From a virus (lineage: Duplodnaviria > Heunggongvirae > Uroviricota > Caudoviricetes): a stretch of DNA of 64,000 bases. Position numbers and translations under genes: made by a program. The DNA is taken from the IMG/VR virus record IMGVR_UViG_2563366840_000011, positions 1-64,000 of that record, one strand, 5' to 3'. The notes below the pieces were generated by a model that was not told the origin of the DNA, made no database searches, and was given only the letters and a program-made list of their open reading frames with translations. Below are positions 2,037-45,529 of the stretch, piece by piece; positions within the stretch are counted from its first letter, which is position 1, and each line of letters opens with the position of its first letter.

Positions 2037-2303
2037 ATGAAACTCAATAATATTTTAAGGAATATCTTCATGAAATCAAAAGACACCCTAAAGTGGTTCC
2101 CTGCGCAGCTTCCTGAAGTAAGAATTATCCTAGGGGATGCTGTAGTGGAAGTAGCAAAACAGGGAAGACCTATCAATACCAGAACATTGCTTGATTACAT
2201 TGAAGGAAACATAAAGAAAAAATCATGGCTGGATAACAAAGAATTATTACAAACAGCGATATCAGTTCTTAAAGACAACCAAAATTTAAATGGTAAAATG
2301 TAA
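2037..2303 (+). CDS. ydfK: YdfK/YnaE-like small cold-shock-induced prophage protein (88 aa)
   Basis: 88-aa ORF; position between ydfJ and pin as in Qin; sequence recalled as YdfK/YnaE family. Confidence 0.55.
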   Translation: MKLNNILRNIFMKSKDTLKWFPAQLPEVRIILGDAVVEVAKQGRPINTRTLLDYIEGNIKKKSWLDNKELLQTAISVLKDNQNLNGKM

Positions 2304-2619
2304 TATAATAAACTTACTTTTTTATCATTTTTCCACTTTAACAACATTTTGCTCCACTTTTCCACGATCAAACAACTTGAAATCTGGTTAAAATAACACG
2401 CAACACTATTCTTCTTCCTTGAGTCCGCCCGGAACTCGAAAAACAAACCGAGTTAAAGCCATTTTTCACAAAATCGATTTTGGGTCTCACCAAAATTACG
2501 GGGTTGCATACGCATTCGTTTATTTTCGAACGTGTACATACAAATATGCACAAAAATAATCAAAATTATTTTCTGAGATGCATTATGATATGAACACCAA
2601 TTTCGTATAGAGTCTCACT

Positions 2620-3210
2620 ATGTCTCGAATTTTTGCTTACTGTCGGATATCAACGCTGGATCAGACCATCGAAAATCAACGCCGGGAAATCGAAAGTGCA
2701 GGTTTTAAAATCAAACCTCAGCAAATAATCGAAGAACACATTAGCGGCTCAGCAGCAACCAGTGAGCGTCCTGGTTTTAACCGGTTGCTTGCTCGCCTGA
2801 AATGTGGTGATCAATTGATTGTGACAAAACTGGATCGCCTTGGTTGTAATGCAATGGATATCAGGAAAACAGTGGAACAACTGACCGAAACAGGTATCAG
2901 AGTGCATTGCTTAGCATTGGGGGGCATTGACCTGACCAGTCCAACAGGAAAAATGATGATGCACGTAATTTCAGCAGTCGCTGAATTTGAACGAGACCTT
3001 TTACTTGAACGCACTCATTCCGGGATAGTAAGAGCCCGCGGCGCAGGGAAACGTTTTGGTCGACCACCTGTGTTAAATGAAGAACAGAAACAGGTGGTAT
3101 TCGAACGAATTAAGTCAGGTGTAAGTATAAGTGCCATTGCCCGGGAATTCAAAACCTCGCGGCAAACCATTTTAAGAGCCAAAGCAAAACTTCAGACACC
3201 TGACATATAA
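2620..3210 (+). CDS. pin: Pin-type serine DNA invertase (Gin/Hin/Pin family)
   Basis: 196-aa ORF with N-terminal resolvase catalytic motif (YCRISTLDQ, catalytic Ser) and C-terminal HTH; adjacent to tfa/stf. Confidence 0.9.
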
Positions 3211-3307
3211 AAAATAATCTCGGTGTGAGATGCTTTACGTCTTCCAAGCCCCCTTCCTTGCCGTAAATGGAAAGATACATCTAATTATAGAATTTATATG
3301 TTTTACC

Positions 3308-3883
3308 CTACGGCAGTGCTGGCCATTCAATATCCTGTGCAGTTGACGTATCAACACGGTTCAGCAACACCCGATACTTTTTCCAGGCTTCCAGCAATGA
3401 GGTTTCTTCCTCCGTTGCGATTTCCAGATCTACAGCATCCTGAAGTGGTGCAATATGCTCACTGGCTACCTGCATCAGGCTGTTTTTTGTTTCTTCCGCC
3501 TCTCGGATCCGGAACAGTTTTTCTGCTTCTGCATCTTTCACCCAGGCTGTGCCGTTCCACTTCTGAAACTCCCCTTCCGGCGATAACCAGGTAACATTTT
3601 CCGGTAACGGACCGAGTTCAGAAATAAATAACGCGTCCCCTGACGCTACGTCATAAACCGTTTTACCCCGATGGTCTTCAACGAGATGCCACGATGCCTT
3701 ATCACTGTTGAAAACAGCCACAAAGCCAGCAGGAATATCTGGTGGTGCAATATCGGTACTGTTTGCTGGCAGACCTGTATGAGGCGGAATATATGCGTCA
3801 CCTTCACCAATAAATTCATTAGTTCCAGCCAGCAGATTATAAATTTTTATGGTCCGTGGTTGTTCACTCATTCTGAATGCCAT
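3308..3883 (-). CDS. tfa: Tail fiber assembly protein Tfa
   Basis: 191-aa ORF closely matching lambda/e14 Tfa; start codon overlaps stf stop (TAATG). Confidence 0.85.
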
Positions 3884-6711: not shown

Positions 6712-6720
6712 ATTCACCCC

Positions 6721-6749
6721 ACAAAAAAGCCCGCCTGAACCGGCGGGCT
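6721..6749 (-). terminator. Rho-independent terminator downstream of lom (stem agcccgcc/ggcgggct, then T-run on minus strand)
   Basis: 8-bp GC-rich inverted repeat with 6-nt loop followed by TTTTTT on the minus strand. Confidence 0.6.
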
Positions 6750-6775
6750 GTCATAACACTGTGTTACCTGGCTAA

Positions 6776-7375
6776 TCAGAATTTATAACCGACACCCACG
6801 ATGAAACCGTCAGTGCGCCAGTCGCCACTGCCGGAACCTTCATAAGCGACATCAACGGCCACGGATTCGGTCGGGTTAAACTGCACGCCAGCCCCCCACG
6901 CCAGAGACGTGTTGCTGTGGCGACCGTCATCACTTCCGATCAGCACATCGTGCGTTTTCCCCGTATTGTCGGTCACCTGCAGATAATCCCCGGAGAAAGT
7001 CGACACACGGCTGTAAGCCACACCCGCCATCGCATACGCGCTGAACCATTCATTCACGCGCACAGACGGCCCCGCCATCACGCTGAACCAGCGGTTACGC
7101 ACGGAATCTTCATGCCAGCGGGTATCGCTGTAATGCGTTTTTTGCTCATCTTCAGCGTTGGCATAACTGAATGACGTAATCAGCCCCAGCGTGTCCGTAA
7201 ACTCATAACGGTATTTCACGTTAATCCCGTTCAGATTATCGCTGCCGGGAGCGTTCGTACGGGCATGAAGATACCCTGCGCTCAGTGTGGCCTGCTGCTC
7301 AGACGCCCATGCAGGCGCACCGGATACGGCCAGACAGATGGCTGCGGACAAAATGGCTGCACAAACTTTACGCAT
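6776..7375 (-). CDS. lom: Lom outer membrane protein (Ail/Lom/PagC family)
   Basis: 199-aa ORF with signal peptide and C-terminal GVGYKF beta-barrel terminus; lambda lom position after J. Confidence 0.85.
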
Positions 7376-28916: not shown

Positions 28917-29940
<1,024 letters not shown>

Positions 29941-29944
<4 letters not shown>

Positions 29945-30252
29945 ATATATTTATGATGAGGACGCTCGTGCTTATTGGCAGGATTTTCAATCTTAAAGGA
30001 GTACTGATGCTGCAGATAAGACTCAACTTTTTCTGACAATTTTTCTGCTACTTCCAGGAAGACTTGCCGGACGCTCCTTCTGGCTGCTGCCTCATAAAAC
30101 TCCAGCGCAGCTCCTTCAACACGGTCCATGGCGACATCCAGGTCAAAAATTTCACCGTCAAAGCGTTCTTTGTCCTGTAAGGCTACAGTTACCGTAACTT
30201 TATTCTCAAAATTACGGACTCCTTTCACAACCAGTTCATAGTCTTGAGTCAT
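29941..30252 (-). CDS. ydfR: YdfR-like protein (DUF1327)
   Basis: 103-aa ORF between holin and endolysin as in Qin. Confidence 0.65.
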
Positions 30253-30256
30253 TGGA

Positions 30257-30472
30257 TTACTCTCCTCTCGCAGCCTTACGCCTGTCTTCTTTAATCTTGA
30301 AATAAAGATTTGTCAGATACGTCAGCAGGCCAAAAACCAGGCTACCCAGCACACCGATTGCAGCCCACTGTGACGGAGTTACTTTATCGAGTAACTGCAA
30401 TGCCCAGAAACCAGCATTACCCGCCGATGTGCCATAGGCAACACCTGTTGTTAACTTATCCATTGATTTCAT
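30257..30472 (-). CDS. essQ: Holin, S21-type pinholin (dual-start motif MKSMDK)
   Basis: Matches remembered P21 S sequence (…[11 protein letters not shown]…[20 protein letters not shown]); two TM segments. Confidence 0.8.
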
Positions 30473-30691
30473 ATCCTCACCCCGATGTACACGGATGGTG
30501 CAATATGTTTGAAAAGATCGGAGTCTACGGGGTAGTTTTGACAGCACACGTTGTTCTCAACGGCGCTAAAAAAACATACACATTAAAAATGTGGGTAATT
30601 ATTTTGAAAGAAAGTCATATATAAAATAATAATACGAGAAATGTTTTCATATTTAGTGTACTGTATACGGCCATTTATACAGGAAAAGCCT

Positions 30692-30862
30692 ATGTCAGAA
30701 CGTAAAAACTCAAAATCACGCCGTAATTATCTCGTTAAATGTTCCTGCCCAAACTGCACCCAAGAGTCAGAACACAGTTTTTCAAGAGTACAAAAAGGTG
30801 CCCTTTTGATCTGCCCTCATTGCAACAAAGTATTCCAGACAAATCTTAAAGCTGTAGCCTGA
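30692..30862 (+). CDS. Small zinc-ribbon protein (two CxxC pairs), hypothetical
   Basis: 56-aa ORF from ATG with AGGAAAAG SD; CPNC...CPHC motif; opposite strand to the lysis genes. Confidence 0.4.
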   Translation: MSERKNSKSRRNYLVKCSCPNCTQESEHSFSRVQKGALLICPHCNKVFQTNLKAVA

Positions 30863-30916
30863 TTGATTTTATTAGTAACAAGTATTTTTTATATTTTAAT
30901 AATATATTTAAAGCAG

Positions 30917-30943
30917 ATAATAAAAAACCCGCCTGAGCGGGTT
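30917..30943 (-). terminator. Rho-independent terminator downstream of cspB
   Basis: aacccgc-ctga-gcgggtt hairpin with T-rich tract on the minus strand. Confidence 0.5.
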
Positions 30944-31225
30944 TGAGATTGTGGTGCTTTTTGTGGGAGTCATCCACTTACGCACTTTGTTTTGCCATGC
31001 CAGCAGTTAGCTTCTGCTGTAAAACTATTCATGCAGCAAACCTGCACTTCACCACAATGGTTAGCATACTTTTCCTGATTAAGATTTTGCCAAATATGCT
31101 AGCCATTGTTTCATGTATTGGACCTCCTTACTTTTTATTAAAGAGATCCAATATTCACTACTCTGTCCGTATCTCTACTCAGGCATCAGCCTTCTTCGTT
31201 ATCGTATACAGACGAGCGATGAATT

Positions 31226-31441
31226 TTAATCAGTAATGATGACATTTGCTGCTGCAGGACCTTTAGCACCACTCTCTATAGAGAAGGTAACCTTTTGACC
31301 TTCAAATAAGGTTCGATAATTATCATTCTGAATCGCAGAAAAATGCACAAACACATCTTTACTACCATCAACAGGAGAAATAAAGCCGAAACCTTTATCA
31401 GCGTTAAACCATTTTACTAAACCAGTCATTTTATTTGACAT
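31226..31441 (-). CDS. cspB: Cold shock protein CspB
   Basis: 71-aa CspA-family ORF; position and sequence as Qin cspB. Confidence 0.85.
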
Positions 31442-31741
31442 TCTACATTCCTTAACTTGAGCCTTTCGGCATAAATGGTTTGCATAACAGAAACGACTTC
31501 GTACTTAATTGGAGAGACTCAAAGAAGGAATAAGTGAATAACACCTGAAATGAGAACTGCTTTAGTAAACTACTTCGTATATCGTCTGTTCTTCAAACCG
31601 ACGCAATCATTAACGCATAGTTGAACATATGAAGCAATGTTTATTTTAGACATCCAGCCATCTTCAACCCCATCAAAAAACTATAGCTTTCTTCAGGAAC
31701 GTGTGTATAGTGCGCCAAGTTATCAGTATTAAGGAATTTTT

Positions 31742-31954
31742 TTGTCCCGTAAAATGACAGGAATTGTCAAAACCTTTGACGGCAAAAGCGGCAAGGGTCT
31801 TATCACCCCATCCGATGGTCGTATCGATGTCCAGCTTCATGTTTCAGCGCTCAATCTCCGCGATGCAGAAGAAATTACCACCGGATTACGCGTGGAATTT
31901 TGCCGGATAAATGGTCTGCGTGGCCCTTCAGCTGCCAATGTTTACCTTTCATGA
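31742..31954 (+). CDS. cspF: Cold shock protein-like CspF
   Basis: 70-aa divergent CspA-family ORF, divergently oriented to cspB. Confidence 0.8.
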
Positions 31955-32246
31955 GCTATATTAAAGCTTTAATTTCAGGCCCCATCGGATCACACATGGA
32001 GAGTTTTTATGAATAACCCCGTCTGTCTTGATGACTGGTTGATTGGCTTTAAAAGCTTATGCTGTACTTTGGCCGTAATAGCTCTGCTAATAATATAATA
32101 AGCAGACTCATTGTGTTTAGGGACATTGTACTGGAAGAAAACATTTTAAACATCAGGCAAATAACCAAGTCACCAGCTAAATAATAAGTTAACAGACATG
32201 AGTCCCGGGATGAGATTCAACATTACCATTGCCCCATTTAAAGCAC

Positions 32247-32270
32247 AAAACCCGCTCATCAGCGGGTTTT
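32247..32270 (-). terminator. tR'-like terminator downstream of the late promoter
   Basis: aaaacccgc-tcatc-agcgggtttt hairpin about 45-70 nt downstream of the predicted -10. Confidence 0.5.
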
Positions 32271-32315
32271 CTACTTTTTCTTAACGTCGGGTATACAAAG
32301 CCCATCGTTGAAAAA

Positions 32316-32344
32316 ATTTTATCCATATTTTTTGAAAAATGCAA
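32316..32344 (-). promoter_or_regulatory. pR'-like late promoter (-35 TTGCAT, 17-bp spacer, -10 TAAAAT), presumed Q utilization region
   Basis: Near-consensus sigma70 hexamers on the minus strand immediately downstream of Q. Confidence 0.45.
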
Positions 32345-32375
32345 ACATCATGTCGCCATCTTCAGCAAAAATCAT

Positions 32376-33128
32376 TTATCTCGTCACCTTCCTCAATTGC
32401 GCTTCCGCGTATGCTTCTTCCTGCCAGCACTTTGTTACCAGTTTACCAATGACGTCCGCATACCCCTTATACCACTGATAATCGGTCAGGTCTGGTACCA
32501 GCTTCTGGACATGACGTCGTGCCAGCGTGGTCGGTAAACGACTAAACCGGTTTCCATTACAACGCCCACAAATCTTATATACCGGTACGCCATGAAACCG
32601 GGTTCTTTTTTCATCCAGAACAATCCCTTTACCCTTACACCCTCTGCACGCTGTGCTGGCTTCGCCCTTACCATGGCAATGCTGACATAGTTCCTTCACC
32701 CATTCTTCCTTGATTACAGATTCCCCGCGTCTGTAGTGTTTCACCACTTCGCGCAATACATTATAAAATCCCGTACCTGAACAATGCTCACAGCGAGCCT
32801 TACTTGCCGCAGACCTGGAGTAATCAGCAAAGGCAAAACTCACGAGGTAAGGAATAATCTGTAACCGGATTTCTTCACTCAATTTGTTCAATGTCGGGTT
32901 ATCCAGTGCCATCGCGTAATTTAGCAGGCCTTCAATCGCAAACTGAGGGTCCTGAACACCAACTTTTGCCAGAAATAAGGCCAACCCAAGTGGTGCTTTC
33001 GACTGCACCATCCCCTGCGCTGCCATTACATCCGTAATTGTTAAACAACCGGTGCCTGTCGCTGGAGCGTCATCGCTCAATTTTGGAGATTTTGGGGAGT
33101 AATATTTTGGTAAGGCTTCAAGGTTCAT
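32376..33128 (-). CDS. quuQ: Late gene antiterminator Q
   Basis: 250 aa from MNLEALPKYY; Cys-rich zinc-binding motifs; directly upstream of a pR'-like promoter. Confidence 0.8.
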   Translation of the reverse strand: MNLEALPKYYSPKSPKLSDDAPATGTGCLTITDVMAAQGMVQSKAPLGLALFLAKVGVQDPQFAIEGLLNYAMALDNPTLNKLSEEIRLQIIPYLVSFAFADYSRSAASKARCEHCSGTGFYNVLREVVKHYRRGESVIKEEWVKELCQHCHGKGEASTACRGCKGKGIVLDEKRTRFHGVPVYKICGRCNGNRFSRLPTTLARRHVQKLVPDLTDYQWYKGYADVIGKLVTKCWQEEAYAEAQLRKVTR

Positions 33129-33141
33129 GCTCGTTCTCCAC

Positions 33142-34191
33142 TTACGCCAGTACGCCAATTGCCAGCGCGCGATCGATAAAACGAAATATCAGCTCCAGTT
33201 GGGAGCCATACTTATCTTCAAATGCCACTGTATCCGTATGCAGCTCGTTGTGATGCTTTCTGCACAAAGGCAACACAAAGAGATCATGTGCTTTTGTTCC
33301 CATTCCGCCCTGCCCGTGACCAATCAGATGATGCGGATCGTCGGCTGGCATACCGCAGCAAGCACACGGCTGTGTCTTAACCCAACGTGTGTATTTCTCC
33401 TTAACCCAGCGGCGACGTTTAGGCAGCTTCATGAAAGATTCCGGAGACTCTGGATCAACGGTGATGCTTACCACCGTCTTTTCCTGTGGTGATTTTTGTT
33501 GCTGGTGGGCGTAAGGCAACGGTGCAAGATTTTTTGTGCGTTGTTTCAATATGCTGGTGGCGGTCTGCTCTCCCGGTACGATGTCGCTTTCGCGGTACAC
33601 CGAGCAGATTTTTTCCGCTGGTAATCCCAGCGAACGACGCGATACAGCCTCAGGTAGTGCATCCACCACCTGATTGCAGACCGCCCACCAGGATAATTCA
33701 GCCAAAGATAATTCCCGCTCCTGCGTACCGCTTATTGCGTGACGGATGACGTCAATCACCCATGCTGTCAGATTTTGTTGAGCAAGCAGCTCCAGTGATT
33801 CCGATGTCTGGTCACGCAGTTGGTTGTCGCAGTGCCAGCACAACACCATTGCGCCGGTACCATAACGGTGAATGACTGTTTCAGTGTGATGGTAATCGCC
33901 ATTAGGCCACTGGCAGGATGTAACATGACGTAATAGCCAGTCGGACAATGCGCCAACGCCGCCAGCAGCACGAATCACCCGTTCGTTACTAAAAAACGGC
34001 AGCAATGTTTTGTCTTCCGCCAGCGGCTGGCGAACGGCAGGAACGACTCCGGATGGCAGATTACGCATGCTTTTTGGTTCCGGTTCCACCAGCACTCGAG
34101 GATTATGAAATATCTGTATGGATTCACGGCCCGGCTTAAGGACCACCAGCCCAAGCTCAGGCACCAGAACAGGTCTAAGTAATACCCGCAC
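33142..34191 (-). CDS. ydfU: YdfU-like DUF968 protein with C-terminal HNH-like motif
   Basis: 349 aa from GTG at 34191 with GGAGG SD 5 nt upstream; C-terminal CxxC...HH...H HNH-like signature. Confidence 0.7.
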   Translation of the reverse strand: MRVLLRPVLVPELGLVVLKPGRESIQIFHNPRVLVEPEPKSMRNLPSGVVPAVRQPLAEDKTLLPFFSNERVIRAAGGVGALSDWLLRHVTSCQWPNGDYHHTETVIHRYGTGAMVLCWHCDNQLRDQTSESLELLAQQNLTAWVIDVIRHAISGTQERELSLAELSWWAVCNQVVDALPEAVSRRSLGLPAEKICSVYRESDIVPGEQTATSILKQRTKNLAPLPYAHQQQKSPQEKTVVSITVDPESPESFMKLPKRRRWVKEKYTRWVKTQPCACCGMPADDPHHLIGHGQGGMGTKAHDLFVLPLCRKHHNELHTDTVAFEDKYGSQLELIFRFIDRALAIGVLA

Positions 34192-34192
34192 G

Positions 34193-34471
34193 TTACCTCC
34201 AGATCCGTTGCTGGAAAGTGCGGGACGCACGTGGTGGGCGTTCGGAATAAGGCAGCCTGACAGAGATTATCCAGTGCCGATAGTCGAGACTGAGAGCTTT
34301 CTTAACCTCGAACCCGCGCCTGCGGTAAGAATGAATCAGCCATTCGGCCTGTTCTGCAGTGCATGGAGGGTGCTGGAACCATTCAGACTTGAATGCGTGA
34401 GAATACCGCCCGTGCGTGCAGGCAAGAACGGGCGAATTATCAGAATTGTAATATTTTGCGTTGCGTGCCAT
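34193..34471 (-). CDS. Hypothetical 92-aa protein, translationally coupled to ydfU
   Basis: ORF whose stop lies within the ydfU SD/start region; no confident family. Confidence 0.4.
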   Translation of the reverse strand: MARNAKYYNSDNSPVLACTHGRYSHAFKSEWFQHPPCTAEQAEWLIHSYRRRGFEVKKALSLDYRHWIISVRLPYSERPPRASRTFQQRIWR

Positions 34472-34537
34472 CGGTTTTCTCCGGTGGCACGGTGTTACTC
34501 AGCGGGAGTTCAGCCCCGCGCAAGATTGTAGATGAGT

Positions 34538-34789
34538 TTATTCTTCTGAAAAAGCAGAAAAGCCAGCTTTTATTCCGATCTCTTTCAATGCCTGTAATGA
34601 AGTGACAAACTCACCTTCGCGCAAGATAAATCCGTCCGTGACCCGAGCATCCACAAAATTAATTAACGCAGCCCCATTCTTTCGCAAACACATAATGCGG
34701 TAATGACTAACAAGATTTCCATTTTCAACGCACACAGCATAGAGGCCATCTTCACAAAAAATTTTACGCAGTTCTTCGATGTTCATCAT
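34538..34789 (-). CDS. rem: Rem-like small prophage protein (83 aa)
   Basis: 83-aa ORF in the Qin rem position between ydfU and hokD. Confidence 0.55.
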   Translation of the reverse strand: MMNIEELRKIFCEDGLYAVCVENGNLVSHYRIMCLRKNGAALINFVDARVTDGFILREGEFVTSLQALKEIGIKAGFSAFSEE

Positions 34790-35005
34790 CAGAATCCTTC
34801 CGGATAATTAGCTCTCCCCTTTAAGGGACCATCCCTCTTATCCCTGCGCGCTACTTAAGTATTTTTGATTCTATTCCGGCACCGTCCAGAACTTCAAACG
34901 CGTTGAAAATAAAAACAAAAACCCGCCGAAGCGGGTTAAGTGCGGGTGCGTTGAGGATGCCTGCCACATCAGAGGTGGCGAGGGATTTCTCCCCCGCCGG
35001 GTCTC

Positions 35006-35161
35006 TTACTCCTCAGGTTCGTAAGCTGTGAAGACAGCGACCTCCGTCTGGCCGGTTCGGATTCGTACCTCGCAGAGGTCTTTCCTCGTTACCAGTGCCG
35101 TCACTATGACGGTTAAACAGATGACGATCAGGGCGATTAACATCGCCTTTTGCTGCTTCAT
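35006..35161 (-). CDS. hokD: Hok-family type I toxin (HokD/RelF), 51 aa
   Basis: Hand translation MKQQKAMLIALIVICLTVIVTALVTRKDLCEVRIRTGQTEVAVFTAYEPEE; not in the ORF track (under 60 aa). Confidence 0.8.
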   Translation of the reverse strand: MKQQKAMLIALIVICLTVIVTALVTRKDLCEVRIRTGQTEVAVFTAYEPEE

Positions 35162-35232
35162 AGCCTGCTTCTCCTGTCAACGCAAAGCAGAAGTGTCACC
35201 TTCGGTGCGAAACAGAGATGTCATGCTTTGGT

Positions 35233-35520
35233 TCAGAGAATGCGTTTGACCGCCTCGCTATATACTTCCGAGCGTTCTCTTTTCCCAACAGAAATCACGA
35301 AAACGACAACTTTCTCGTCTATAACCTGGTATACAAGGCGATAGCCTGAAGACCGGAGCTTAATCTTGTAACAATCAGGCATACCACGGAGCTTGTTTGC
35401 TTCAATCCGGGGTGACTCAAGTACTTCAACCAGCTTCTTTTTCAACTGTTCACGTACCGTCGAGCCCAGCTTTCGCCATTCCTTTAGTGCCCGCTCGTCA
35501 AAATCCAGAAAATACGCCAT
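35233..35520 (-). CDS. relE: RelE mRNA interferase toxin
   Basis: 95-aa ORF matching RelE. Confidence 0.9.
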   Translation of the reverse strand: MAYFLDFDERALKEWRKLGSTVREQLKKKLVEVLESPRIEANKLRGMPDCYKIKLRSSGYRLVYQVIDEKVVVFVISVGKRERSEVYSEAVKRIL

Positions 35521-35759
35521 CAGAGTTCATCCAGCGTCACACGTACTGGCTTAGGATTACGAAGCCGTTCTTTCACTATCTCCACAAGTTCAGCATCTTC
35601 ATCACTCAGGAGTGTCTGTTTGAACGGCAAGCGTTCATTGTCAGCGATATACTCGAGCATGAGACGAAGCGCTTCAGAAGGAGTTACACCCATTTTTTCA
35701 AGCGCGGCGTAAGAACGCGCTTTAAGTTCATCGTCAATACGCAGGTTAATGCTACCCAT
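35520..35759 (-). CDS. relB: RelB antitoxin
   Basis: 79-aa ORF matching RelB; stop overlaps relE start. Confidence 0.9.
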   Translation of the reverse strand: MGSINLRIDDELKARSYAALEKMGVTPSEALRLMLEYIADNERLPFKQTLLSDEDAELVEIVKERLRNPKPVRVTLDEL

Positions 35760-35783
35760 GTCTTACACCTCTTGTAATTACAA

Positions 35784-36089
35784 ATGTCATTACAAGTATC
35801 GCACTACAACATGCTTAGGGCAAGTCACGAAGGAAGTCAGAAAGTAGTCGTAAGAACGGTGATCACTGTCCGCTTTGTGCCAGGAGCAGCCATTGCTAAG
35901 TCCATCCTGTATTGTGCAGGTCAGCTCGTTTTTAAAGAGTCCGGCCATCATCTTACTGGTACAGACACCATATACTTTGTGACGGTCAGGCTACATATGC
36001 ACAACTCAACTTATTCATCTATTTTTTGCTTTAGCATGTCAGTGTTGCTTTCTCGTCGGCGGGTGAGCGGTGACCTGACCTGTCGATAA
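35784..36089 (+). CDS. ydfV: YdfV-like hypothetical protein
   Basis: 101-aa ORF in the Qin ydfV position; weak sequence support. Confidence 0.35.
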   Translation: MSLQVSHYNMLRASHEGSQKVVVRTVITVRFVPGAAIAKSILYCAGQLVFKESGHHLTGTDTIYFVTVRLHMHNSTYSSIFCFSMSVLLSRRRVSGDLTCR

Positions 36090-36291
36090 AGGAACGTAAC
36101 ACGTTTTATGCAACACCCGCATGCGGCAGAAAATTATTGCCGAACGTTTACCCCTGTCAACAAGCTTTACTTTCTGAGGCGCGCCAGCCCGCGAGGAAAA
36201 CAATCTGAACATCAAACAATTAATGACACAAGAAATACGATTAAAGATTTTTTTGTGCATGCCGATAGTGCTTTTTTAAAAGGAGAAATCT

Positions 36292-36624
36292 ATGTCTGTC
36301 ACAATTCAGGGAAATACCTCAACCGTTATTTCAAACAACTCCGCCCCGGAAGGAACATCAGAAATAGCCAAAATCACAAGACAAATTCAGGTGCTGACTG
36401 AAAAGCTTGGGAAAATCTCATCGGAAGAGGGGATGACGACACAGCAGAAAAAAGAAATGGCTGCATTGGTACAGAAGCAAATTGAAAGCCTCTGGGCTCA
36501 ACTGGAGCAGTTGTTAAGGCAGCAGGCAGAGAAAAAGAATGAAGACGCGACAGTTCAGCCTGATAAAAAAGAAGAGAAAAAAGACGATACAAATACCGCT
36601 GGCACCATTGATATTTACGTCTAA
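36292..36624 (+). CDS. flxA: FlxA (FliA-regulated coiled-coil protein)
   Basis: 110-aa ORF matching FlxA; AGGAG SD. Confidence 0.85.
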   Translation: MSVTIQGNTSTVISNNSAPEGTSEIAKITRQIQVLTEKLGKISSEEGMTTQQKKEMAALVQKQIESLWAQLEQLLRQQAEKKNEDATVQPDKKEEKKDDTNTAGTIDIYV

Positions 36625-36638
36625 GTGACAGCCGTATT

Positions 36639-36662
36639 GTGGCCCTCATCGGGCCACTTTTC
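36639..36662 (+). terminator. Rho-independent terminator of flxA
   Basis: gtggccc-tcatc-gggccac hairpin followed by TTTTCG. Confidence 0.6.
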
Positions 36663-36999
36663 GCCATCAGCCTTTTCTTTAAAGACATATTATCTTTGTA
36701 TCATTTCTGATAGTTAACATTACAAGATATAAGTAATGGACGCACTCCCAATTAGTCTATTTAAATCGCCACGAGTTTAACTGACAACCCATGATCAATT
36801 ATGAATTGCAACTATTTCTGTAGTCACTTTTGTGGGGACAGTCCACAAAACTGCCAACTTCCGCTTCTTGCTCTTAGCGGACATTAGCATAGGCTATTTA
36901 CCATAACGCCTCATTACGCGCACCGCCCAGACTGACTCAGCGCGTTTCTGGCATATCCCCGGTAAAACAAGTAACAAACCACCCGAAAATGAACACCAG

Positions 37000-38450
37000 A
37001 AACGCGACTTAAGAATCTACCCTATGAATGGATATGCACTCAACCGAATCGATCTTGGTTTCAATCTTTTTTATCGGGATCAGGCTTCTTTTTAGGTAAC
37101 TTCGGGGGCTTAACTTGCTGATGACTTTGCGTTCGGCGCGTAAGCCAGGGATGGTCAGCTTTAGGTTTAACATAGTATTTTGAGCGTAAATCAATACGGG
37201 CATTATCCACTCGTTCATGGACACTCTTTTCATCATCCAGTGGTATAGGCTCCGGGCCATCAACATACTTTTCCCAGCCCAGCGCTTTCCCGTCATACAG
37301 AACGTTAATTTCACCGTCAAAGTTCTCGCATACAGTAACAACCGAATGCCTAAGTCGATATCCCCGGCCCTCACTGCGTACCTGAAACGCACTGCTTTTG
37401 TACTGGAAAGTGAGATTTTTAGACAGAACGCGCTTCGCCTGTAGGCTGAAGATATAACCCAGTTCCTCTTCAGAATGGTGCACATCAAGATGAGCATTAT
37501 CAGTAGTACGAGGCGACGTAGCGAACCGGTTGTTATAGGCTTCAATAAAGGTCGGCAACCATGCATTTGCTGTTTCAATATCACTGATATTCTGAAGCCG
37601 CATTTCTTTGACCAGCCTGTCCTGTAGTGTCTGATTGGCGCGCTCTACCCGCCCTTTTGCCTGCGGGCTGTTGGCATGGATTGGCTCGATGCCCAGTGTC
37701 TTTATCGCACGAGTGAACTGGGTCAGCTCACCTTCCCGCTCTGGGTTATTTACCCTGAATATACTGTGTCTATCAGAGTAGAGAGCGAGCGGTACGCCAT
37801 GATCATTAAGGTAACCCCGGAGGGTTTCCATGTAAGCCCGGGTTGTTTCAGCAGGCACAAAACGCAACGCCATCAACGCACTGGTGGCATCATCAATGAA
37901 AACGATCAGTGTACATCTGGGGCCTCGATTTTCAAACCAGTCATGAGGTGAGCCATCAATCTGGATCAGTTCACCGTAAGATGGTCGTCGCATGCGGCGT
38001 TGATATATACGGGCAATTTTACGACGGCGTTCACGCCATAACCCCTCTTCTATCATCCACTTTCTGAGAGTTTCAACGGATAAAGATAAACCGTGTATCT
38101 CGCGCAATTTTTCGCACGCAAACGTAGGTCCAAAATCAGCGTAACGGCCTTTGAGGAGTGAAATTACTGTTGCTCTGAATTCAGTAGAAAAGGAATTATT
38201 AGGACGCTTTCCACGTCGGTGGGAAACCAGACCAGAAGGCCCTTCATTTCTATACCGTTGCACCAGACGTTTAACCTGCCGAATAGAAATGCCAATGCGT
38301 GCCGCAGCTTGTTCCTGAATAATCTGAAGTCGATGGAGTTCCTTATGACTCATCGTAACAGTCTCTTTGATCATGAAAAATCCCCCAGAGAATTGTCTGG
38401 GGACATTTTAGAATGGTTCAAAGGGGACATTACAGCTTGGTGTTAACAAT
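37000..38450 (-). mobile_element. Insertion sequence carrying the 437-aa transposase; ends not resolved
   Basis: Single large transposase ORF between flxA terminator and an AT-rich small-ORF region; terminal inverted repeats could not be located by eye. Confidence 0.4.
37061..38374 (-). CDS. DDE transposase with N-terminal HTH and integrase-core (rve-like) domain; IS family not assigned (IS481/ISNCY-like guess)
   Basis: 437-aa ORF with HTH at N-terminus and D...D...E integrase-core pattern; basic Lys/Pro-rich C-terminus. Confidence 0.7.
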   Translation of the reverse strand: MIKETVTMSHKELHRLQIIQEQAAARIGISIRQVKRLVQRYRNEGPSGLVSHRRGKRPNNSFSTEFRATVISLLKGRYADFGPTFACEKLREIHGLSLSVETLRKWMIEEGLWRERRRKIARIYQRRMRRPSYGELIQIDGSPHDWFENRGPRCTLIVFIDDATSALMALRFVPAETTRAYMETLRGYLNDHGVPLALYSDRHSIFRVNNPEREGELTQFTRAIKTLGIEPIHANSPQAKGRVERANQTLQDRLVKEMRLQNISDIETANAWLPTFIEAYNNRFATSPRTTDNAHLDVHHSEEELGYIFSLQAKRVLSKNLTFQYKSSAFQVRSEGRGYRLRHSVVTVCENFDGEINVLYDGKALGWEKYVDGPEPIPLDDEKSVHERVDNARIDLRSKYYVKPKADHPWLTRRTQSHQQVKPPKLPKKKPDPDKKD

Positions 38451-38708
38451 AGCCTGCTTCTCCGTGCCTTTCGGCACGTAAGAGGCTAACCTACATGTGT
38501 CTAGCATGAAATTGGCCTCAGATTAATGTTAAGCGTCTTGCAGGACGCGTAATGTTAACTGGGGCTTTTCTCTATCTGCCGTTGGTGTCCATGCCCGAGG
38601 CAGATAGCCTCAAGCACCCGCAGTCATTCTACTTAACTAAGATTTCCCCGCAAACCGTTTTTGTCCAGCACAGTAAATATCCAACTAAACCAATGGAGTT
38701 CGCTGTAT

Positions 38709-38888
38709 TTACCGCCAGTATTCAATGCACATGACCGCCATGAACACCCCTAAAAAAAGGGCATTTATATATCCAAATATTAATATCAAAACATCAACTT
38801 TTTCCATATACCTTGCTGTGAAGATGATGGGCATACATGATGCGAACAACCAGAACGCAACAAACAAAAACTGCAATGCGTTTTTCAT
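38709..38888 (-). CDS. Small hydrophobic two-TM protein (59 aa), hypothetical
   Basis: ATG preceded by GGAGG SD; two hydrophobic helices; AT-rich. Confidence 0.4.
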   Translation of the reverse strand: MKNALQFLFVAFWLFASCMPIIFTARYMEKVDVLILIFGYINALFLGVFMAVMCIEYWR

Positions 38889-39139
38889 TATTCCTCCTAC
38901 AATCAATGTGCAATTACATTTAAACACACCTCAATTTGGCCGGACATATAAATATCTAAACCAGAAAAAATCACTTACATAGCGTTACAAACTCTTTAGT
39001 CTAAAGGTTCATCGTAAAACATTCCCCATACTTATCAGTCCGTTCCGCGCCAGGTAGCTCATTGCCTTATCTGGCAACCTGTAATCAGGTTTCCGCTTTT
39101 TCAGTTGGCTGGTCGTTTAACCGACATAGTTAATCCATT

Positions 39140-39790
39140 AATCTAGTTGCCGGATGTTGGTGGATTTTCGCGTTTTAGTTGTTCATAAAAGTGCACAGCT
39201 TTAACCAGTTCTTCTGATGTAACTGGGACTGGTGAGGCAGTGAATAAGGCCTGAATTTGATAGTTCGGCCTGTCGTTACAATCCTCTTTTTTCGGTACAT
39301 ATTTCCAGTCACCAGACCACTACTTCCCCTGAAAGTCCGTAACGCCTTTTTTCACGTAGCGATATCGCCATGCCACTGGTTTTGCTTGCCCCGCCGTTTC
39401 ATGCCCTTCCTGATAATTAATCTCGCTCATTCATCGCCCCACTCATCACAATATGCTTCGACCGGAGTTTTTCCCGCTTCATAGTCATCACGCTAGGATT
39501 CGACATCAGCAGCACTTCCACCGCGTAACTCACCATAGTCCATTAATAGTTCATCCCGCTCTTCAAAACTGATGTTATATTTAGCTGAACAAAAATCAGC
39601 CACTTTGTTCTTCCTCATCGTCTTTTATTTCGTGGTATGAGTAATTGCAGTAGTTAAAGAAAATTTCTTATGCTCCGTCATGAATTTCCTCAGGTGTTGC
39701 GTCATCGTCCACTTCGAATACATCCTCAAAATCTCCACCAGCTATTCCCGTTTCAATAATAATTTTGAACTTTCGCATTTCACTACCGCC
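39140..39790 (-). pseudogene. Run of short, frame-broken ORFs (36-41 aa pieces), probable degraded prophage gene(s)
   Basis: Hand translation gives consecutive short ORFs in different frames (MRKFKIIIETG..., MRKNKVADF..., MSEINYQEGHETAGQAKPVAWRYRYV...) with no ORF of 60 aa or more. Confidence 0.3.
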
Positions 39791-40193
39791 CTTTCGGGCG
39801 GCCTCCTGATGTTCTGAGGGTGCAGAAATCCATCCGGTTAAGGATTAAATTTTATTTACAGAACTGAATTTAATTATTCAGATATACGTATCTGTAGCCT
39901 TACGAATCTACTCACTGGATGCCTCTTTCATAAAAATAATCCAGTGGGTTTTATCGTTTTTTCCCCTGTTCGTTGACAGATAACAGGTTTTCTGTCTGTC
40001 AGTGCCAGAATCTGGCTTACCGGTATTTGCGTTTCATTCCATTAAAAAATCAGAACGCCGTGCGGCCTCAACACCCGAAAGGCTTCTTTAAATCTCTGTC
40101 GCGAATCATCACGCCAGGCATCTTTATTCAGCCGTCCATATTTCTTTCCCATCCAGGCGTTATCACCAACACTCTCAAGGTAATGACTCCAAC

Positions 40194-40697
40194 TTATTGA
40201 TAGTGTTTTATGTTCAGATAATGCCCGATGACTTTGTCATGCAGCTCCACCGATTTTGAGAACGACAGCGACTTCCGTCCCAGCCGTGCCAGGTGCTGCC
40301 TCAGATTCAGGTTATGCCGCTCAATTCGCTGCGTATATCGCTTGCTGATTACGTGCAGCCTTCCCTTCAGGCGGGATTCATACAGCGGCCAGCCATCCGT
40401 CATCCATATCACCACGTCAAAGGGTGACAGCAGGCTCATAAGACGCCCCAGCGTCGCCATAGTGCGTTCACCGAATATGTGCGCAACAACCGTCTTCCGG
40501 AGCCTGTCATACGCGTAAAACAGCCAGCGCTGGCGCGATTTAGCCCCGACATAGCCCCACTGTTCGTCCATTTCCGCGCAGACGATGACGTCACTGCCCG
40601 GCTGTATGCGCGAGGTTACCGACTGCGGCCTGAGTTTTTTAAATGGCGGAAAATCGTGTTGAGGCCAACGCCCATAATGCGGGCGGTTGCCCGGCAT
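40194..40697 (-). CDS. insB: IS1 InsB (expressed as InsAB' by frameshift)
   Basis: 167-aa ORF matching IS1 InsB. Confidence 0.9.
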
Positions 40698-40891
40698 CCA
40701 ACGCCATTCATGGCCATATCAATGATTTTCTGGTGCGTACCGGGTTGAGAAGCGGTGTAAGTGAACTGCAGTTGCCATGTTTTACGGCAGTGAAAGCAGA
40801 GATAGCGCTGATGTCCGGCGGTGCTTTTGCCGTTACGCACCACCCCGTCAGTAGCTGAACAGGAGGGACAGCTGATAGAAACAGAAGCCAC
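40616..40891 (-). CDS. insA: IS1 InsA
   Basis: 91-aa ORF matching IS1 InsA. Confidence 0.9.
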
Positions 40892-40946
40892 TGGAGCACC
40901 TCAAAAACACCATCATACACTAAATCAGTAAGTTGGCAGCATCACC

Positions 40947-41297
40947 CCTTTTTCAGTGAAAATCTCGCCAAGCGGTGTCTGGCTGTTATTAATCGCCCAG
41001 TCAGCCCCGCTCTCTTTCGCTTTTTCCAGTCGTTCATCAATGCGATCGGCAACAATCACATTTTTAACGTTATAGACGCCTTTTAATACCTGAACGATCG
41101 TCAGGCCGATTGGACCGGCACCATAAACCAGAACGGTATCATTTTCAGTCGGTTGACCATGTCCGGTTACGTTAGCCGCAATGGTAAAAGGTTCGATCAT
41201 TACCGCATATTGATCGGCCACTGCTTCAGGAATTTTCCACGCATTTTTTGCCGGAACCACGGCATATTCACTGAAACCACCGTCAGCTGTGGGGAGG
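40947..41297 (-). pseudogene. Internal fragment of a zinc-type medium-chain dehydrogenase gene (rspB-like by position), truncated at its 3' end by IS1 and at its 5' end by the Mu-like prophage
   Basis: Translation ...DGGFSEYAVVPAKNAWKIPEAVADQYAVMIEPFTIAANV...VLVYGAGPIGL... shows the MDR substrate-domain and Rossmann GxGxxG pattern; the frame reads straight into the IS1 terminus. Confidence 0.55.
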
Positions 41298-41550: not shown

Positions 41551-42120
41551 TTAACCGGCCTTCTTGTCGTGACTTGTTAGGCCCGCTTCGGCTGTCTGTT
41601 GATCAGCCTCAGATGACCCTTTTTTCAGTTGCTCATTCAGCCTAAGCAAACGCTCTTTGTCTTCTAAGGGGAGATTCATCAGACTCATATCAACATCCTT
41701 AACGCTAGCCACAAGACCTACCATGCTGCGAGCGCCTTCCTTAAAGCAGTACTCTAATATTTTTTTCTGATCATCTGGTTCTAGACTGTCGAAAATCATG
41801 TTCCACGCGCATTTAGCAGGGTCTGCATATCCTCTGTGCGCTTCATCAACAGCGATGATGCGATTCAAATTAGAATCAGCCTCATGCCCAAATGCCAGCC
41901 AGTCCAACGTGACATGCTCTTTCGCTGCGATGGCTTGCATGGCAATGAAGGATGGTTCTGTTCCCCTGCTAAGGTAGTTGTTCAATGTCGAGAATGATAA
42001 CCCCCAATCTTTTGCCGCAGCCCTTACACTGCGAGTGCCTACGAGAGCTTTTAGTCTCTTGATAAAGTTTTCTTTTCTCTCTTCATCAAAAGCAAATTCG
42101 TTTGCTTTACGGTATCCCAT
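41551..42120 (-). CDS. Mu-like repressor (Repc-like)
   Basis: 189-aa ORF divergent from ner at the left end, HTH-like segment; Mu gene order. Confidence 0.55.
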   Translation of the reverse strand: MGYRKANEFAFDEERKENFIKRLKALVGTRSVRAAAKDWGLSFSTLNNYLSRGTEPSFIAMQAIAAKEHVTLDWLAFGHEADSNLNRIIAVDEAHRGYADPAKCAWNMIFDSLEPDDQKKILEYCFKEGARSMVGLVASVKDVDMSLMNLPLEDKERLLRLNEQLKKGSSEADQQTAEAGLTSHDKKAG

Positions 42121-42303: not shown

Positions 42304-42531
42304 ATGGAAAGAAATGAAGTACAGCGTGACTGGCATCGCATTGATATTGTCGCCGAGCTGCACAAGCGTGGCGTCACTATGCGCGGCCTTTCCGCCAGCG
42401 CGGGACTAAAACCCGACACGCTGAAAAATGCGCTGGCACGCTCTTATCCAAAAGGAGAGCGCATTATTGCAAATGCTCTCAATTTAGAACCCGCCAGTAT
42501 CTGGCCAAGCCGTTACAACAAGGACCTGTGA
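42304..42531 (+). CDS. ner: Ner-like DNA-binding protein
   Basis: 75-aa ORF resembling Mu Ner (…RDWHR.D…L.NAL.R..PKGE.IIANAL...IWPSRY). Confidence 0.8.
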   Translation: MERNEVQRDWHRIDIVAELHKRGVTMRGLSASAGLKPDTLKNALARSYPKGERIIANALNLEPASIWPSRYNKDL

Positions 42532-42532
42532 C

Positions 42533-44590
42533 ATGTTCGTGACTGTTAACGAATTAGTTGGCGTCCCTGGATTGCCAACAACACAACAAGGACTGCGATA
42601 CAGTCTTAAAAAAAGTGCAGGCAACTCCCCTGAACTGGTTCGCAAGCGTGCTGGCAGCAAAGCATTCGAGTACCACATCGACTGCCTTCCTGAACAGGCG
42701 CGTGAAATAGTCAAAGCCCGGCATTATCGGGAGGTGTTGAAACAGTCTGATTGCTCACCCGCTCCAGCGGCACCAAAGCGGGAAGTCACCACGACCCGTG
42801 ATGAGCTGGCGTTATTACGGCAGTGCCCGGTATTGCTGGAGCGTGAAGTTTCCGACCTTACCGAACGCCAGAAACAGATCGCCGATGCGCGTGCATTATT
42901 AGCCGCAGAGGTTGAGCGCCTTCGGGATATCGGTATGTCTCGCGCATCGGCGGTTGAGTTCATCGCCAAAGAGTCACGCAAGGGTTCACTCCCGGAGAAC
43001 ATCCAGGCTGCGGCTGATATTGCCAATGCCCGTAAAGGCTCCAGCCGCCGTGGCGTGGGGGAAAGAACACTCCAGGAATGGCTGTCTGTTTACCTTTCAA
43101 CCCGCCCTGGTATCGAACGCCTTGCTTTACTGGCCCCAGGCCATCTTAAAGCGCGTAAGCCTGAACAGATTAAGTGGCTCCCTGATTTTCTTGCTCACTG
43201 GCGGAAACTCTCAGGCCCTTCCCTGGTTGATGCGTGGCGTTCATTCAAGACTGAATGGCAGGCTATCTATGCGGGACAGCCAGCGATGCTCGCAGTCTGC
43301 CCGTCTTATGATGCCGTTCGCCGTGCGATGGAAAAGTTGCCCAAACGTGAACGCGCTCGCGGCCGTATCAGCGGTTCAGCGGCTCTGGCCTTTGAGGTTT
43401 ACCAGAAACGTGACTGGTCACAGATGCCTGTAAATGGTTGCTGGATTGCGGATGGTAAATCGCTGGATATGAAAGTTGCTCATCCGGTCCATGGCCGCCC
43501 ATTCACGCCCGAACTGACGCTGGTGATTGATGGACGAACCCGCTTCCTGGTGGGCTGGAGCCTGGCGCTCTCGGAGAACGTCATCGCCGTAGCGGATGCC
43601 TATCGCTACGCCATGAAATTCCACGGGAAACCTCTTTTTGTTTATTCGGATAACGGTGGCGGCGAAACGAACAAAACGCTGGATGCTGATATCACCGGTA
43701 TTTTCACCCGCATGGGGATTGATCACCCGACCAGTATTCCTGGCCGACCTCAGTCTCGCGGGATTATCGAACGCCTGAACGCCGTAATACCGAGAGCGAT
43801 CGCCAACAAATTTGATACTTACAACGGATTCGGGGCCGACCGTGAGCATGTCCGGATGACCGGTCGCGCCATCCAGTCAGCGATTAAGGCTCAGGAGAAT
43901 GGCCGCGAGCTCACGAGCGTACAGCGTAATGCGCTGCGTAAACTGCCGTCATGGCAGATGCTGCTGGATACCATTGCCGAGGAAGTCGACAAATACAACA
44001 ACCTGCATGAGCACAGCGAGTTACCGAAGCGTAATGGTGTTCATATGACGCCAGCACAGTACCGTCGCGAGGTCCTGGCCACTGAGGGTGACGAGATTGA
44101 ATATCTGACGGATATCGAACTTCGTGAAGCCTTCATGCCGGAAATGTGCCGTACGGCCCAGAGAGGCTGGATTGACCTGATGAACAACCAGTATTTCAGC
44201 GCTGACCTGATACAGGTCGATGGTGAAGAGGTTCGTGTTGCCTATGACATTCACGACCCTGCCGCCGTCATCGTTCGCCGTATGGACGGTACTTATGTCT
44301 GCACCGCCATCTGGAACGGCAACAAGCGTGCCGCGCTGCCAACCAGCATGATGGATATCGCCGTTGAGAAACGCCGCCAACGTCGTCTGAAGCGCATTGA
44401 CGAACAGCGAGAAGAGATTGAAGCAGAGGCGCGAGGACTGCTGCCAGAAAGCGATATGTACCCTGATTTCGGCGCATTAATACCATCAGATGCCGAGCGT
44501 ATTAATGATGACCGGGAACACGTGTTCCTGTTCGAGTCAGAGCGAGAAGAGTGGCTGAAAAGTCAGGGCAATAAAAAAGCGGCCTTCTGA
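42533..44590 (+). CDS. A: Mu-type DDE transposase A
   Basis: 685-aa ORF immediately after ner; MuA-like size and position. Confidence 0.85.
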   Translation: MFVTVNELVGVPGLPTTQQGLRYSLKKSAGNSPELVRKRAGSKAFEYHIDCLPEQAREIVKARHYREVLKQSDCSPAPAAPKREVTTTRDELALLRQCPVLLEREVSDLTERQKQIADARALLAAEVERLRDIGMSRASAVEFIAKESRKGSLPENIQAAADIANARKGSSRRGVGERTLQEWLSVYLSTRPGIERLALLAPGHLKARKPEQIKWLPDFLAHWRKLSGPSLVDAWRSFKTEWQAIYAGQPAMLAVCPSYDAVRRAMEKLPKRERARGRISGSAALAFEVYQKRDWSQMPVNGCWIADGKSLDMKVAHPVHGRPFTPELTLVIDGRTRFLVGWSLALSENVIAVADAYRYAMKFHGKPLFVYSDNGGGETNKTLDADITGIFTRMGIDHPTSIPGRPQSRGIIERLNAVIPRAIANKFDTYNGFGADREHVRMTGRAIQSAIKAQENGRELTSVQRNALRKLPSWQMLLDTIAEEVDKYNNLHEHSELPKRNGVHMTPAQYRREVLATEGDEIEYLTDIELREAFMPEMCRTAQRGWIDLMNNQYFSADLIQVDGEEVRVAYDIHDPAAVIVRRMDGTYVCTAIWNGNKRAALPTSMMDIAVEKRRQRRLKRIDEQREEIEAEARGLLPESDMYPDFGALIPSDAERINDDREHVFLFESEREEWLKSQGNKKAAF

Positions 44591-44635: not shown

Positions 44636-45529
44636 ATGTCAGCTAAAAATGAACTTGTCGAACTGATGAAAGCAAAAGGTCTTAACCAGACGCAGGTCGC
44701 CCGCGCTATTGGTAAGAGCTCTGCCGTAATCAGCCAGTACCTGAATAATAAATACGACGGCGATATTGCATCGCTGGAAAACGATATTCGTAGCTTTATC
44801 GATCGTCAGCATGAAAAAGAGCGCTCGGCACGTATCAGCGTCAAATTTGTTGATACCCCAACAACGCGCAAAGCCGTTGATGTTATACGCATGGCGCACG
44901 TCGAAGGTGATATCAACGTGCTTTACGGCGAAGCCGGTCTGGGCAAGACGATGATTTGCAAAGCCTACGTCTCTAAATACCGGGATGCGTTGCTGATTGA
45001 GGCCGACCCTGGCTACACCGCACGCGTAATCCTGGAAGAACTCTGCAACCTGCTGGGGCTCAGTACCCGCGGCAATATGCATGAACTTAGCGAAGCCTGC
45101 ATCAACAAGCTGCGCGACTCCGGGCGCGTGCTGATTATTGATGAAGCTGAGAACCTCCCTCTGCGTGCGCTGGAATCTATCCGCCGCATTCATGACAAAA
45201 CGGGGATCGGCATCGTCCTGGTTGGTATGCCTCGCCTGATTCTGAACCTCAAGGGCAAACGCGGTGAGCTCGTACAGCTCTATAGCCGTGTCGGTTTCGC
45301 CCTCAACCTCGGGCATAGCCTGCCGGGTGCTGATATTGACGTCATCGCCAGCAGCGTTCTCCCGGATGGCCTGAATGAAGACCTGAGCAAAGCGCTGTTC
45401 AACGCATCAAAAGGTAATGCCCGCCGACTGTTCAAGCTACTGCGCGGTGCAGTTCGTACCAGTGCAATGAATGATGTTCCGGTCAGCGGTCATATCGTCA
45501 ATCAGATAGCCGAAATGCTGATCCATTAA
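44636..45529 (+). CDS. B: Mu B-like transposition ATPase (AAA+)
   Basis: 297-aa ORF with N-terminal HTH, Walker A GEAGLGKT and Walker B LIIDEAE. Confidence 0.8.
   Translation: MSAKNELVELMKAKGLNQTQVARAIGKSSAVISQYLNNKYDGDIASLENDIRSFIDRQHEKERSARISVKFVDTPTTRKAVDVIRMAHVEGDINVLYGEAGLGKTMICKAYVSKYRDALLIEADPGYTARVILEELCNLLGLSTRGNMHELSEACINKLRDSGRVLIIDEAENLPLRALESIRRIHDKTGIGIVLVGMPRLILNLKGKRGELVQLYSRVGFALNLGHSLPGADIDVIASSVLPDGLNEDLSKALFNASKGNARRLFKLLRGAVRTSAMNDVPVSGHIVNQIAEMLIH

Follow-up and report, generated by a model that had tools for sequence, protein, structure and literature searches.

The locus considered here raises the question of how a complete copy of IS1 came to lie between the broken end of a lambdoid prophage and a fragment of a dehydrogenase gene without being flanked by a target-site duplication. 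In the following, the window denotes the whole stretch of DNA that was analysed (64,000 nucleotides). The IS1 copy comprises the following parts:

40179-40946, minus strand: complete IS1, an IS1B-like variant of 768 bp with both canonical ends present and no target-site duplication
40179-40201: IRR of IS1, the low-coordinate end, beginning with GGTAATGACTCCAACTTATTGAT
40924-40946: IRL of IS1, the high-coordinate end, finishing with ATCAGTAAGTTGGCAGCATCACC, the reverse complement of GGTGATGCTGCCAACTTACTGAT
40616-40891, minus strand: insA, 91 aa, with the Pfam matches Zn_ribbon_InsA (1.8e-20) and HTH_Tnp_IS1 (1.7e-30)
40194-40697, minus strand: insB' frame, 167 aa, with the Pfam match DDE_Tnp_IS1 (1.2e-77)

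With a length of ~768 bp, imperfect terminal inverted repeats of ~23 bp and two frames linked by an A6C site, 40179-40946 shows the features that define the IS1 family. The A6C site, which couples insB' to insA by a -1 frameshift, was found as the motif GTTTTTTAA read on the plus strand, and the N- and C-terminal domains of InsA as well as DDE_Tnp_IS1 were all detected by the Pfam search. Over its full length, the element can be aligned with annotated copies of IS1A/IS1B at 98-99.9%, the upper value being that of the top match among 5,426 complete E. coli genomes.

The preliminary description of this DNA had stated that the 9 bp adjoining the two IS1 ends differ. The same bases were read again (40170-40178 CACTCTCAA versus 40947-40955 CCTTTTTCA), and neither an 8-bp nor a 9-bp direct repeat was found at the two ends of the element at any offset. 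Taken alone, the presence of two unlike 9-mers is trivial, and the informative control is given by other IS1 copies of the same region. Accordingly, 14 IS1 copies from 13 other E. coli genomes were mapped onto an IS1-free reference, with their boundaries set in an identical manner. Perfect duplications of 8-9 bp were seen at all five copies with flanks that adjoin each other in the reference:

AH21: simple IS1 insertion with the duplication GCGTCTGCA
25-07338: simple IS1 insertion with the duplication TAAAGGTTC
CUPF12, rspB 3' region: simple IS1 insertion with the duplication GAATTTAT
STS73-1-E, rspB 3' region: simple IS1 insertion with the duplication AACGTATG
YSP8-1, one copy: simple IS1 insertion with the duplication AAAATTTA

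The duplication was absent from every control copy with non-contiguous flanks, and the IS1 of the window falls into this same class. The missing duplication is thus the mark of a rearranged copy and no argument against its identity as IS1.

On its two sides, the element is bordered by remnants of two different genes, one belonging to the prophage and one to the host:

1289-40178: retained Qin-type lambdoid prophage, from attL in ydfJ to the methyltransferase remnant
40042-40178, minus strand: 3' remnant of a class I SAM-dependent methyltransferase gene (137 nt, 44 codons plus stop), cut on its 5' side by IS1
40947-41287, minus strand: internal fragment of rspB (341 bp, roughly codons 112-225 of 339) with the Pfam match ADH_zinc_N

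The prophage is identified as Qin-type by its integration in ydfJ beside rspB together with its Qin gene set. Positions 1-1288 of the window correspond to ydfJ of the prophage-free site of CUPF12, from which the sequence diverges at the att core, and by this comparison attL was placed at 1288/1289, inside ydfJ. The att core reads GAAATCCATAA(T)TT at about 1276-1290, and the first base of the window lies at the stop codon of the 3' portion of ydfJ (427-aa ORF). According to the names in the RefSeq comparators, the retained genes comprise those for tail, head, terminase, lysis and Q as well as ydfU, rem, hokD, relBE, ydfV, flxA, ydfW and an ISNCY transposase; early, immunity, replication and integration genes are all gone from the prophage of the window. 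Positions 9000-33400 match NADC1036 in a single piece (99.9%), positions 29409-40179 are collinear with NADC1036 (L009 1-10798), and positions 33400-40179 show 99.93% identity to ET670. The methyltransferase remnant corresponds to ET670 L001 6642-6779 within the coding sequence 6642-6998, and its 44 amino acids gave no Pfam match. Two further details of the prophage were observed. The ISNCY / IS1202-like transposase (HTH + rve_3) forms an uninterrupted ORF of 437 aa at 37061-38374 on the minus strand, and its near-identical counterparts are annotated as partial pseudogenes in the RefSeq comparators. At position 39963, a run of C residues contains one extra C compared to ET670, AH21, 25-07338, ETEC1720 and NADC1036, to be explained either by a private insertion of 1 bp or by a sequencing error in the homopolymer.

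On the opposite side, the minus-strand frame of rspB continues for 22 nt into IS1 (ORF 40925-41260). The fragment matches the references 25-07338 (L008 11521-11861) and NADC1036 (L009 from 20024), and it is 100% identical to rspB of HS, AH21, MB51 and others. The preliminary description had seen prophage DNA on one side of the element and a dehydrogenase frame running into the IS1 terminus on the other, which corresponds to the methyltransferase remnant and rspB found here. It had missed that the dehydrogenase piece extends for just 341 bp, as a Mu-like prophage breaks rspB at 41288. Accordingly, rspB is incomplete in both directions: the 343 bp of its 3' end are gone at the IS1 junction, and the 333 bp of its 5' end are split off by the Mu-like prophage. 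The 5' part of rspB and rspA were both sought within the window and are absent from it.

The DNA that is missing between the two flanks could be located by alignment to references carrying an intact Qin-type prophage beside an intact rspB, namely NADC1036, which has no IS1 at this place, and 25-07338. In both references the flanks are collinear with the window and occur in the same order and orientation, with a spacing of 9,225 bp in NADC1036 (L009 10797/8 and 20024) and 9,372 bp in 25-07338 (L008 2148 and 11521). Based on the RefSeq annotation, the interval begins in the replication part of the prophage with the 5' part of the methyltransferase pseudogene, DUF977, the O-family replication gene and ydaT. 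It proceeds through the immunity part (a Cro/DicC-type regulator, a DicA-type regulator, ydfA, ydfB, ydfC, dicB and ydfD) and the integration end (a 2.5-kb exonuclease gene, xis, int and attR), and it ends on the host side with the 5' tip of ydfJ, followed by intergenic DNA and the terminal 343 bp of rspB. The loss is divided into about 8.7 kb of prophage DNA and about 0.5 kb of host DNA. A BLAST comparison of the missing interval with the whole window yielded no match.

These results bear out most of what the preliminary description had proposed. Its claim that the window lacks int, xis, immunity and replication genes agrees with the missing BLAST match for the interval, and its interpretation of the copy as an IS1-mediated deletion of the early region and the 3' part of the dehydrogenase gene, rather than as a simple insertion, agrees with flanks lying 9.2-9.4 kb apart in the references. 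The alignment to strains with an intact Qin-type prophage and rspB, which it had suggested as a check, placed the missing interval between collinear flanks, and a genome with the two flanks contiguous without IS1, which would have spoken for the opposite, was not encountered. The suggestion to look for the missing interval together with a second IS1 copy or its footprint was borne out for the interval only, since elsewhere within the 64-kb window no second IS1 copy, IS1 end or footprint was found. Altogether, the IS1 copy is very probably an IS1-bounded deletion junction and not a simple insertion, with ~9.2-9.4 kb replaced by the element and a stepwise history by adjacent deletion as the favoured course. 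That the deletion depended on IS1 is highly probable.

Evidence for a stepwise history comes from the comparison of strains. With a query of 140 bp, an unbroken IS1-rspB junction was found in just three complete genomes out of 5,426, namely ET670, ET490 and ET979 (NZ_CP100930, NZ_CP100947 and NZ_CP100876), which are isolates from frog faeces from Shantou. The rspB-side junction of these strains is identical to that of the window to the base. The other end of their IS1 adjoins the O gene (L009 12285), so that their deletion is 1,487 bp shorter; relative to ET670, the window is without L001 6780-8266. Since the rspB junction is common to both and the ET deletion is the shorter one, the deletion is a nested one that probably arose in at least two steps. 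Collinear but separated flanks and a nested series with one common IS junction are what characterises IS-associated deletion junctions. The junction of IS1 with the methyltransferase gene, searched with a query of 139 bp, had no counterpart among the 5,426 complete E. coli genomes, so that the window represents the derived and rarer state. A 30-mer across this left junction had no match in the GTDB species genomes, the JGI metagenomes or IMG/VR, and a 32-mer across the right junction was absent from IMG/VR. Among the genomes and collections searched, there was neither a sister nor an intermediate for the last deletion step; the 30-mers CACCAACACTCTCAAGGTAATGACTCCAAC and GCCATTGTTCCGTTGGGTAATGACTCC are suited to finding intermediates with both IS1 copies.

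The relation of the window to the ET strains was further compared by means of the flanks and the IS1 bodies. The flanks of window and ET670 are about 99.9% identical, and their IS1 copies show 9 internal differences at positions 182-616; across the ET strains, the IS1 bodies differ from that of the window at 9-15 sites. In the haplotype of the left flank, AH21, 25-07338 and ETEC1720 are as close to the window as the ET strains, and in rspB a private SNP sets the ET strains apart. As proof of descent from the ET lineage, the haplotypes of the flanks are thus uninformative, with several unrelated strains being equally close. Since they do not single out the ET strains, it is the positional identity by itself that carries the argument for descent of the common junction. 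A comparison within the ET group showed that ET979 (L007 5267-6034) and ET670 (L001 8267-9034) have the same junctions, with the differences between their IS1 bodies clustered in a patch at 298-471. This patch is direct evidence that IS1 copies undergo gene conversion with one another while the locus stays fixed.

Based on these data, the following course of events is assumed. A resident IS1 at the integrase end of the Qin-type prophage, which is located in ydfJ beside rspB, would have replaced the ~9.2-9.4 kb, whereby the IS1 end at rspB would have stayed fixed and the opposite end would have shifted outward in at least two steps, presumably to the O gene first and to the methyltransferase gene next. 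Each step would most likely have been an intramolecular, transposase-driven transposition of IS1, i.e. an adjacent deletion, in which the IS is kept, the interval is lost and no duplication is formed. Judged from the sequences, the chance that the last step was an adjacent deletion may be put at about even, and recombination between two IS1 copies may be a serious candidate for the same step, at a chance short of even. Recombination between IS copies has been described as a frequent cause of missing duplications, and adjacent deletion is named there as well (PMC11708052). Since the IS1 body of the window is unlike that of ET670, a pure adjacent deletion from an ET-type ancestor needs an additional gene conversion or another history, and the difference in the IS1 bodies is neutral to slightly unfavourable for adjacent deletion.

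In the case of recombination, a second, directly oriented IS1 of the IS1B-like type would have entered the methyltransferase gene of an ET-type ancestor, and a RecA-dependent crossover would have dropped 1,487 bp together with one IS1. A single event of this kind would account for both the non-ET body at sites 182-616 and the ET-type right junction, provided that the crossover took place in the invariant last 152 bp; the crossover would, however, be confined to the final 20% of the element. The ingredients for such an event are at hand, as IS1 copies are numerous (median of 11 places per genome), two direct copies are separated by about 540 bp in this region of YSP8-1, and insertion elements do enter the methyltransferase gene, as shown by AH21, where a simple IS1 insertion lies 44 bp from the junction, and by ET490, where an IS5 lies 15 bp from it. 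On the other hand, an intermediate with IS1 at the exact methyltransferase position was not found in the 5,426 complete genomes and three large collections. The internal polymorphisms of IS1 had been considered as a discriminator of the two routes and were rejected, because the conversion in ET979 alters the body without any rearrangement or deletion, so that the polymorphism argument is not decisive. Recombination can therefore be regarded as plausible for the last step at somewhat less than an even chance. The stepwise order itself would be dispensable if the window and the ET alleles were sisters, i.e. single leftward deletions of unequal length that started from an rspB gene with a simple IS1 insertion at this site. 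Such an origin is compatible with the flank haplotypes, by which the window is not assigned to the ET lineage, and with the differing IS1 bodies, and both CUPF12 and STS73-1-E do have simple insertions in the rspB 3' region. However, no simple insertion at the exact rspB position was found among the 5,426 complete genomes, of which only the three ET genomes have an unbroken junction there, and one more large deletion is required than in the stepwise model, which makes separate deletions an unlikely explanation.

Explanations that dispense with a deletion are far less probable. Two IS1 copies lying ~1.5 kb apart or at different loci could have been collapsed or mis-joined during assembly, and indeed the left junction is unique to the window, whose source genome lies outside the set of complete genomes searched. 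Nevertheless, the right junction is independently present in three complete genomes, both flanks are neighbours in collinear order within a single locus, as a real deletion predicts, the IS1 is a clean 768 bp with ends that are not hybrid, and assemblers mostly break at IS copies and seldom join across them. An assembly artefact is accordingly very improbable. A simple insertion with a decayed duplication, like a rearrangement between distant IS1 copies by inversion or translocation, has nothing in its favour beyond the missing duplication and carries practically no probability: the flanks are 9.2-9.4 kb apart in the intact references, their order and orientation are those of the references, and with an identity of 99-100% to the references they leave no room for the decay of a 9-bp repeat. 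The mapping of the flanks onto the references thus refutes all three of these histories.

The region in which the deletion ends was found to be rich in further IS1 copies:

NADC1036 L009 18525-20024: IS1-rich stretch from the int 3' end to the rspB 3' end, equivalent to 40947 onward in the window

Within about 430 bp, covering the rspB 3' end and the adjoining int, IS1 was found in the same orientation (the one orientation surveyed) at 15 or more distinct positions, distributed over 29 genomes out of 5,426. The independent IS1-bounded deletion alleles recognised in the stretch number at least eight, namely those of HS, 873.10, MB51, TUM9812, YSP8-1, ETEC1720, the ET group and the window. Apart from the window, at least seven deletions without duplications finish within about 1.5 kb of the window site, and the deletion sizes range from 201 bp (YSP8-1) up to the whole prophage plus ydfJ (MB51). 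A rough expectation from the IS1 copy number would be ~3 genomes compared to the 29 determined, an estimate which ignores phylogenetic non-independence as well as target preference and which is to be taken as a lead and not as a result. The accumulation may mean that the region is a hot spot for IS1, or it may point to selection. It is doubtful, though, that the int/attR-rspB boundary of Qin-type prophages is a site of recurrent IS1 insertion and deletion in different E. coli lineages which reflects selection, either for locking of the prophage or for loss of rspB, and not local target preference alone. The literature on Qin, IS1 and rspB contained nothing specific to this locus. As a separate observation, the methyltransferase pseudogene has been hit by three independent IS events within 45 bp (window ~40178; L002 ~3329; L005 7823), which comprise the IS1 junction of the window, the IS5 of ET490 at a distance of 15 bp and the simple IS1 insertion of AH21 at a distance of 44 bp.

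The second interruption of rspB is caused by the Mu-like prophage, for which the following features were determined:

41288-64000, plus strand: Mu-like transposable prophage, with a left end beginning TGTGGGGAGGTG and a continuation that probably extends to the end of the window
41551-42120, minus strand: c-like repressor gene
42304-42531: ner-like gene with a Ner-type HTH
42533-44590: MuA-like transposase gene
44636-45529: MuB-like ATPase gene (AAA ATPase)

The homology to rspB ends at 41287, and the Mu-like left terminus starts at 41288. Seven independent copies in unrelated contexts, one from Citrobacter murliniae (CP163158) and six from metagenome contigs, diverge at exactly 41288; these related copies are 92-99.8% identical, and the insertion site is different in each. 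The element thus shows a 5'-TG terminus, the gene order c/ner/A/B and unrelated insertion sites, as is typical of Mu-like prophages, and the Pfam matches in the region comprise Mu-transpos_C, HTH_Tnp_Mu_1, HTH_35 and AAA_22. In a protein search, the MuA-like protein was 68.5% identical to the transposase of the Klebsiella phage ST405-OXA48phi1.1 (35 kb). Since the phages closest to the Mu-like prophage have a size of about 35 kb, its right end, which is located beyond the window, is presumably ~35 kb away, and the remaining part of rspB and rspA presumably lie past this end. The left end together with the first 7.7 kb had no near-identical DNA in the 5,426 complete E. coli genomes and almost no nucleotide match in 50,697 phage genomes. 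Within E. coli, the Mu-like prophage seems to be either rare or not yet described. Altogether, rspB would have been inactivated twice, by the IS1 deletion and by the Mu-like insertion.

Adjacent, nested deletions promoted by IS1 are classical in the gal region of E. coli and on plasmids. They were reportedly described by Reif and Saedler in 1975 and were followed by later work on intramolecular IS1 transposition. The allele of the window resembles these classical deletions in that IS1 is kept, one end is fixed, the other end is joined to a new site without a duplication, and nested relatives exist. In contrast to them, the events were deduced from natural genomes instead of being observed, and the IS1 body was exchanged in addition. 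A second parallel is provided by the E. coli long-term evolution experiment, in which stepwise adjacent deletions by IS150 and deletions by recombination between IS copies were found (PMC11708052; PMC7881107). In both cases there is no duplication at the deletion-side IS, the deletions are small at first and extend from a fixed IS, and the same two candidate mechanisms are considered. The IS150 deletions, however, involve another IS family, and their order is proven by a dated time series, whereas for the window it was reconstructed from the alleles.

The prophage itself can be compared with the cryptic Qin prophage of K-12 and related grounded lambdoid prophages, with which it shares the ydfJ-rspB site and the same genes (ydfK...ydfU, rem, hokD, relBE, flxA, ydfW). 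Qin of K-12 has kept dicA/dicC/dicB and an intQ pseudogene and has lost most of its late genes. In the copy of the window, the late region is full, whereas the entire early part, the integration end and part of rspB are gone. A further close relation is the allele of ET670/ET490/ET979, which agrees with the window in the IS1-rspB junction, in its orientation and in the haplotype of the prophage (99.9%), but which differs by a left junction in the O gene, 1,487 bp further right, and by the lack of a Mu-like prophage in rspB.

That insertion elements erode cryptic prophages together with neighbouring host genes is well known, and the finding adds a new allele and no new mechanism. For the annotation of the window it means that the remnants of rspB and of the methyltransferase gene should be treated as pseudogenes and the prophage as defective. 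The deletion also explains why rspB has the status of a pseudogene in the window, and why a well-preserved Qin-type prophage of 39 kb is found without int, xis, attR, repressor and replication genes. Since these functions are lost, the prophage would be unable to excise or to replicate and would thus be permanently fixed. With its genes and ends intact, the IS1 of the window could erode the locus further. Altogether, the locus represents a clear natural case of stepwise, IS-driven erosion of a prophage, for which near-intermediate alleles are present in public genomes.
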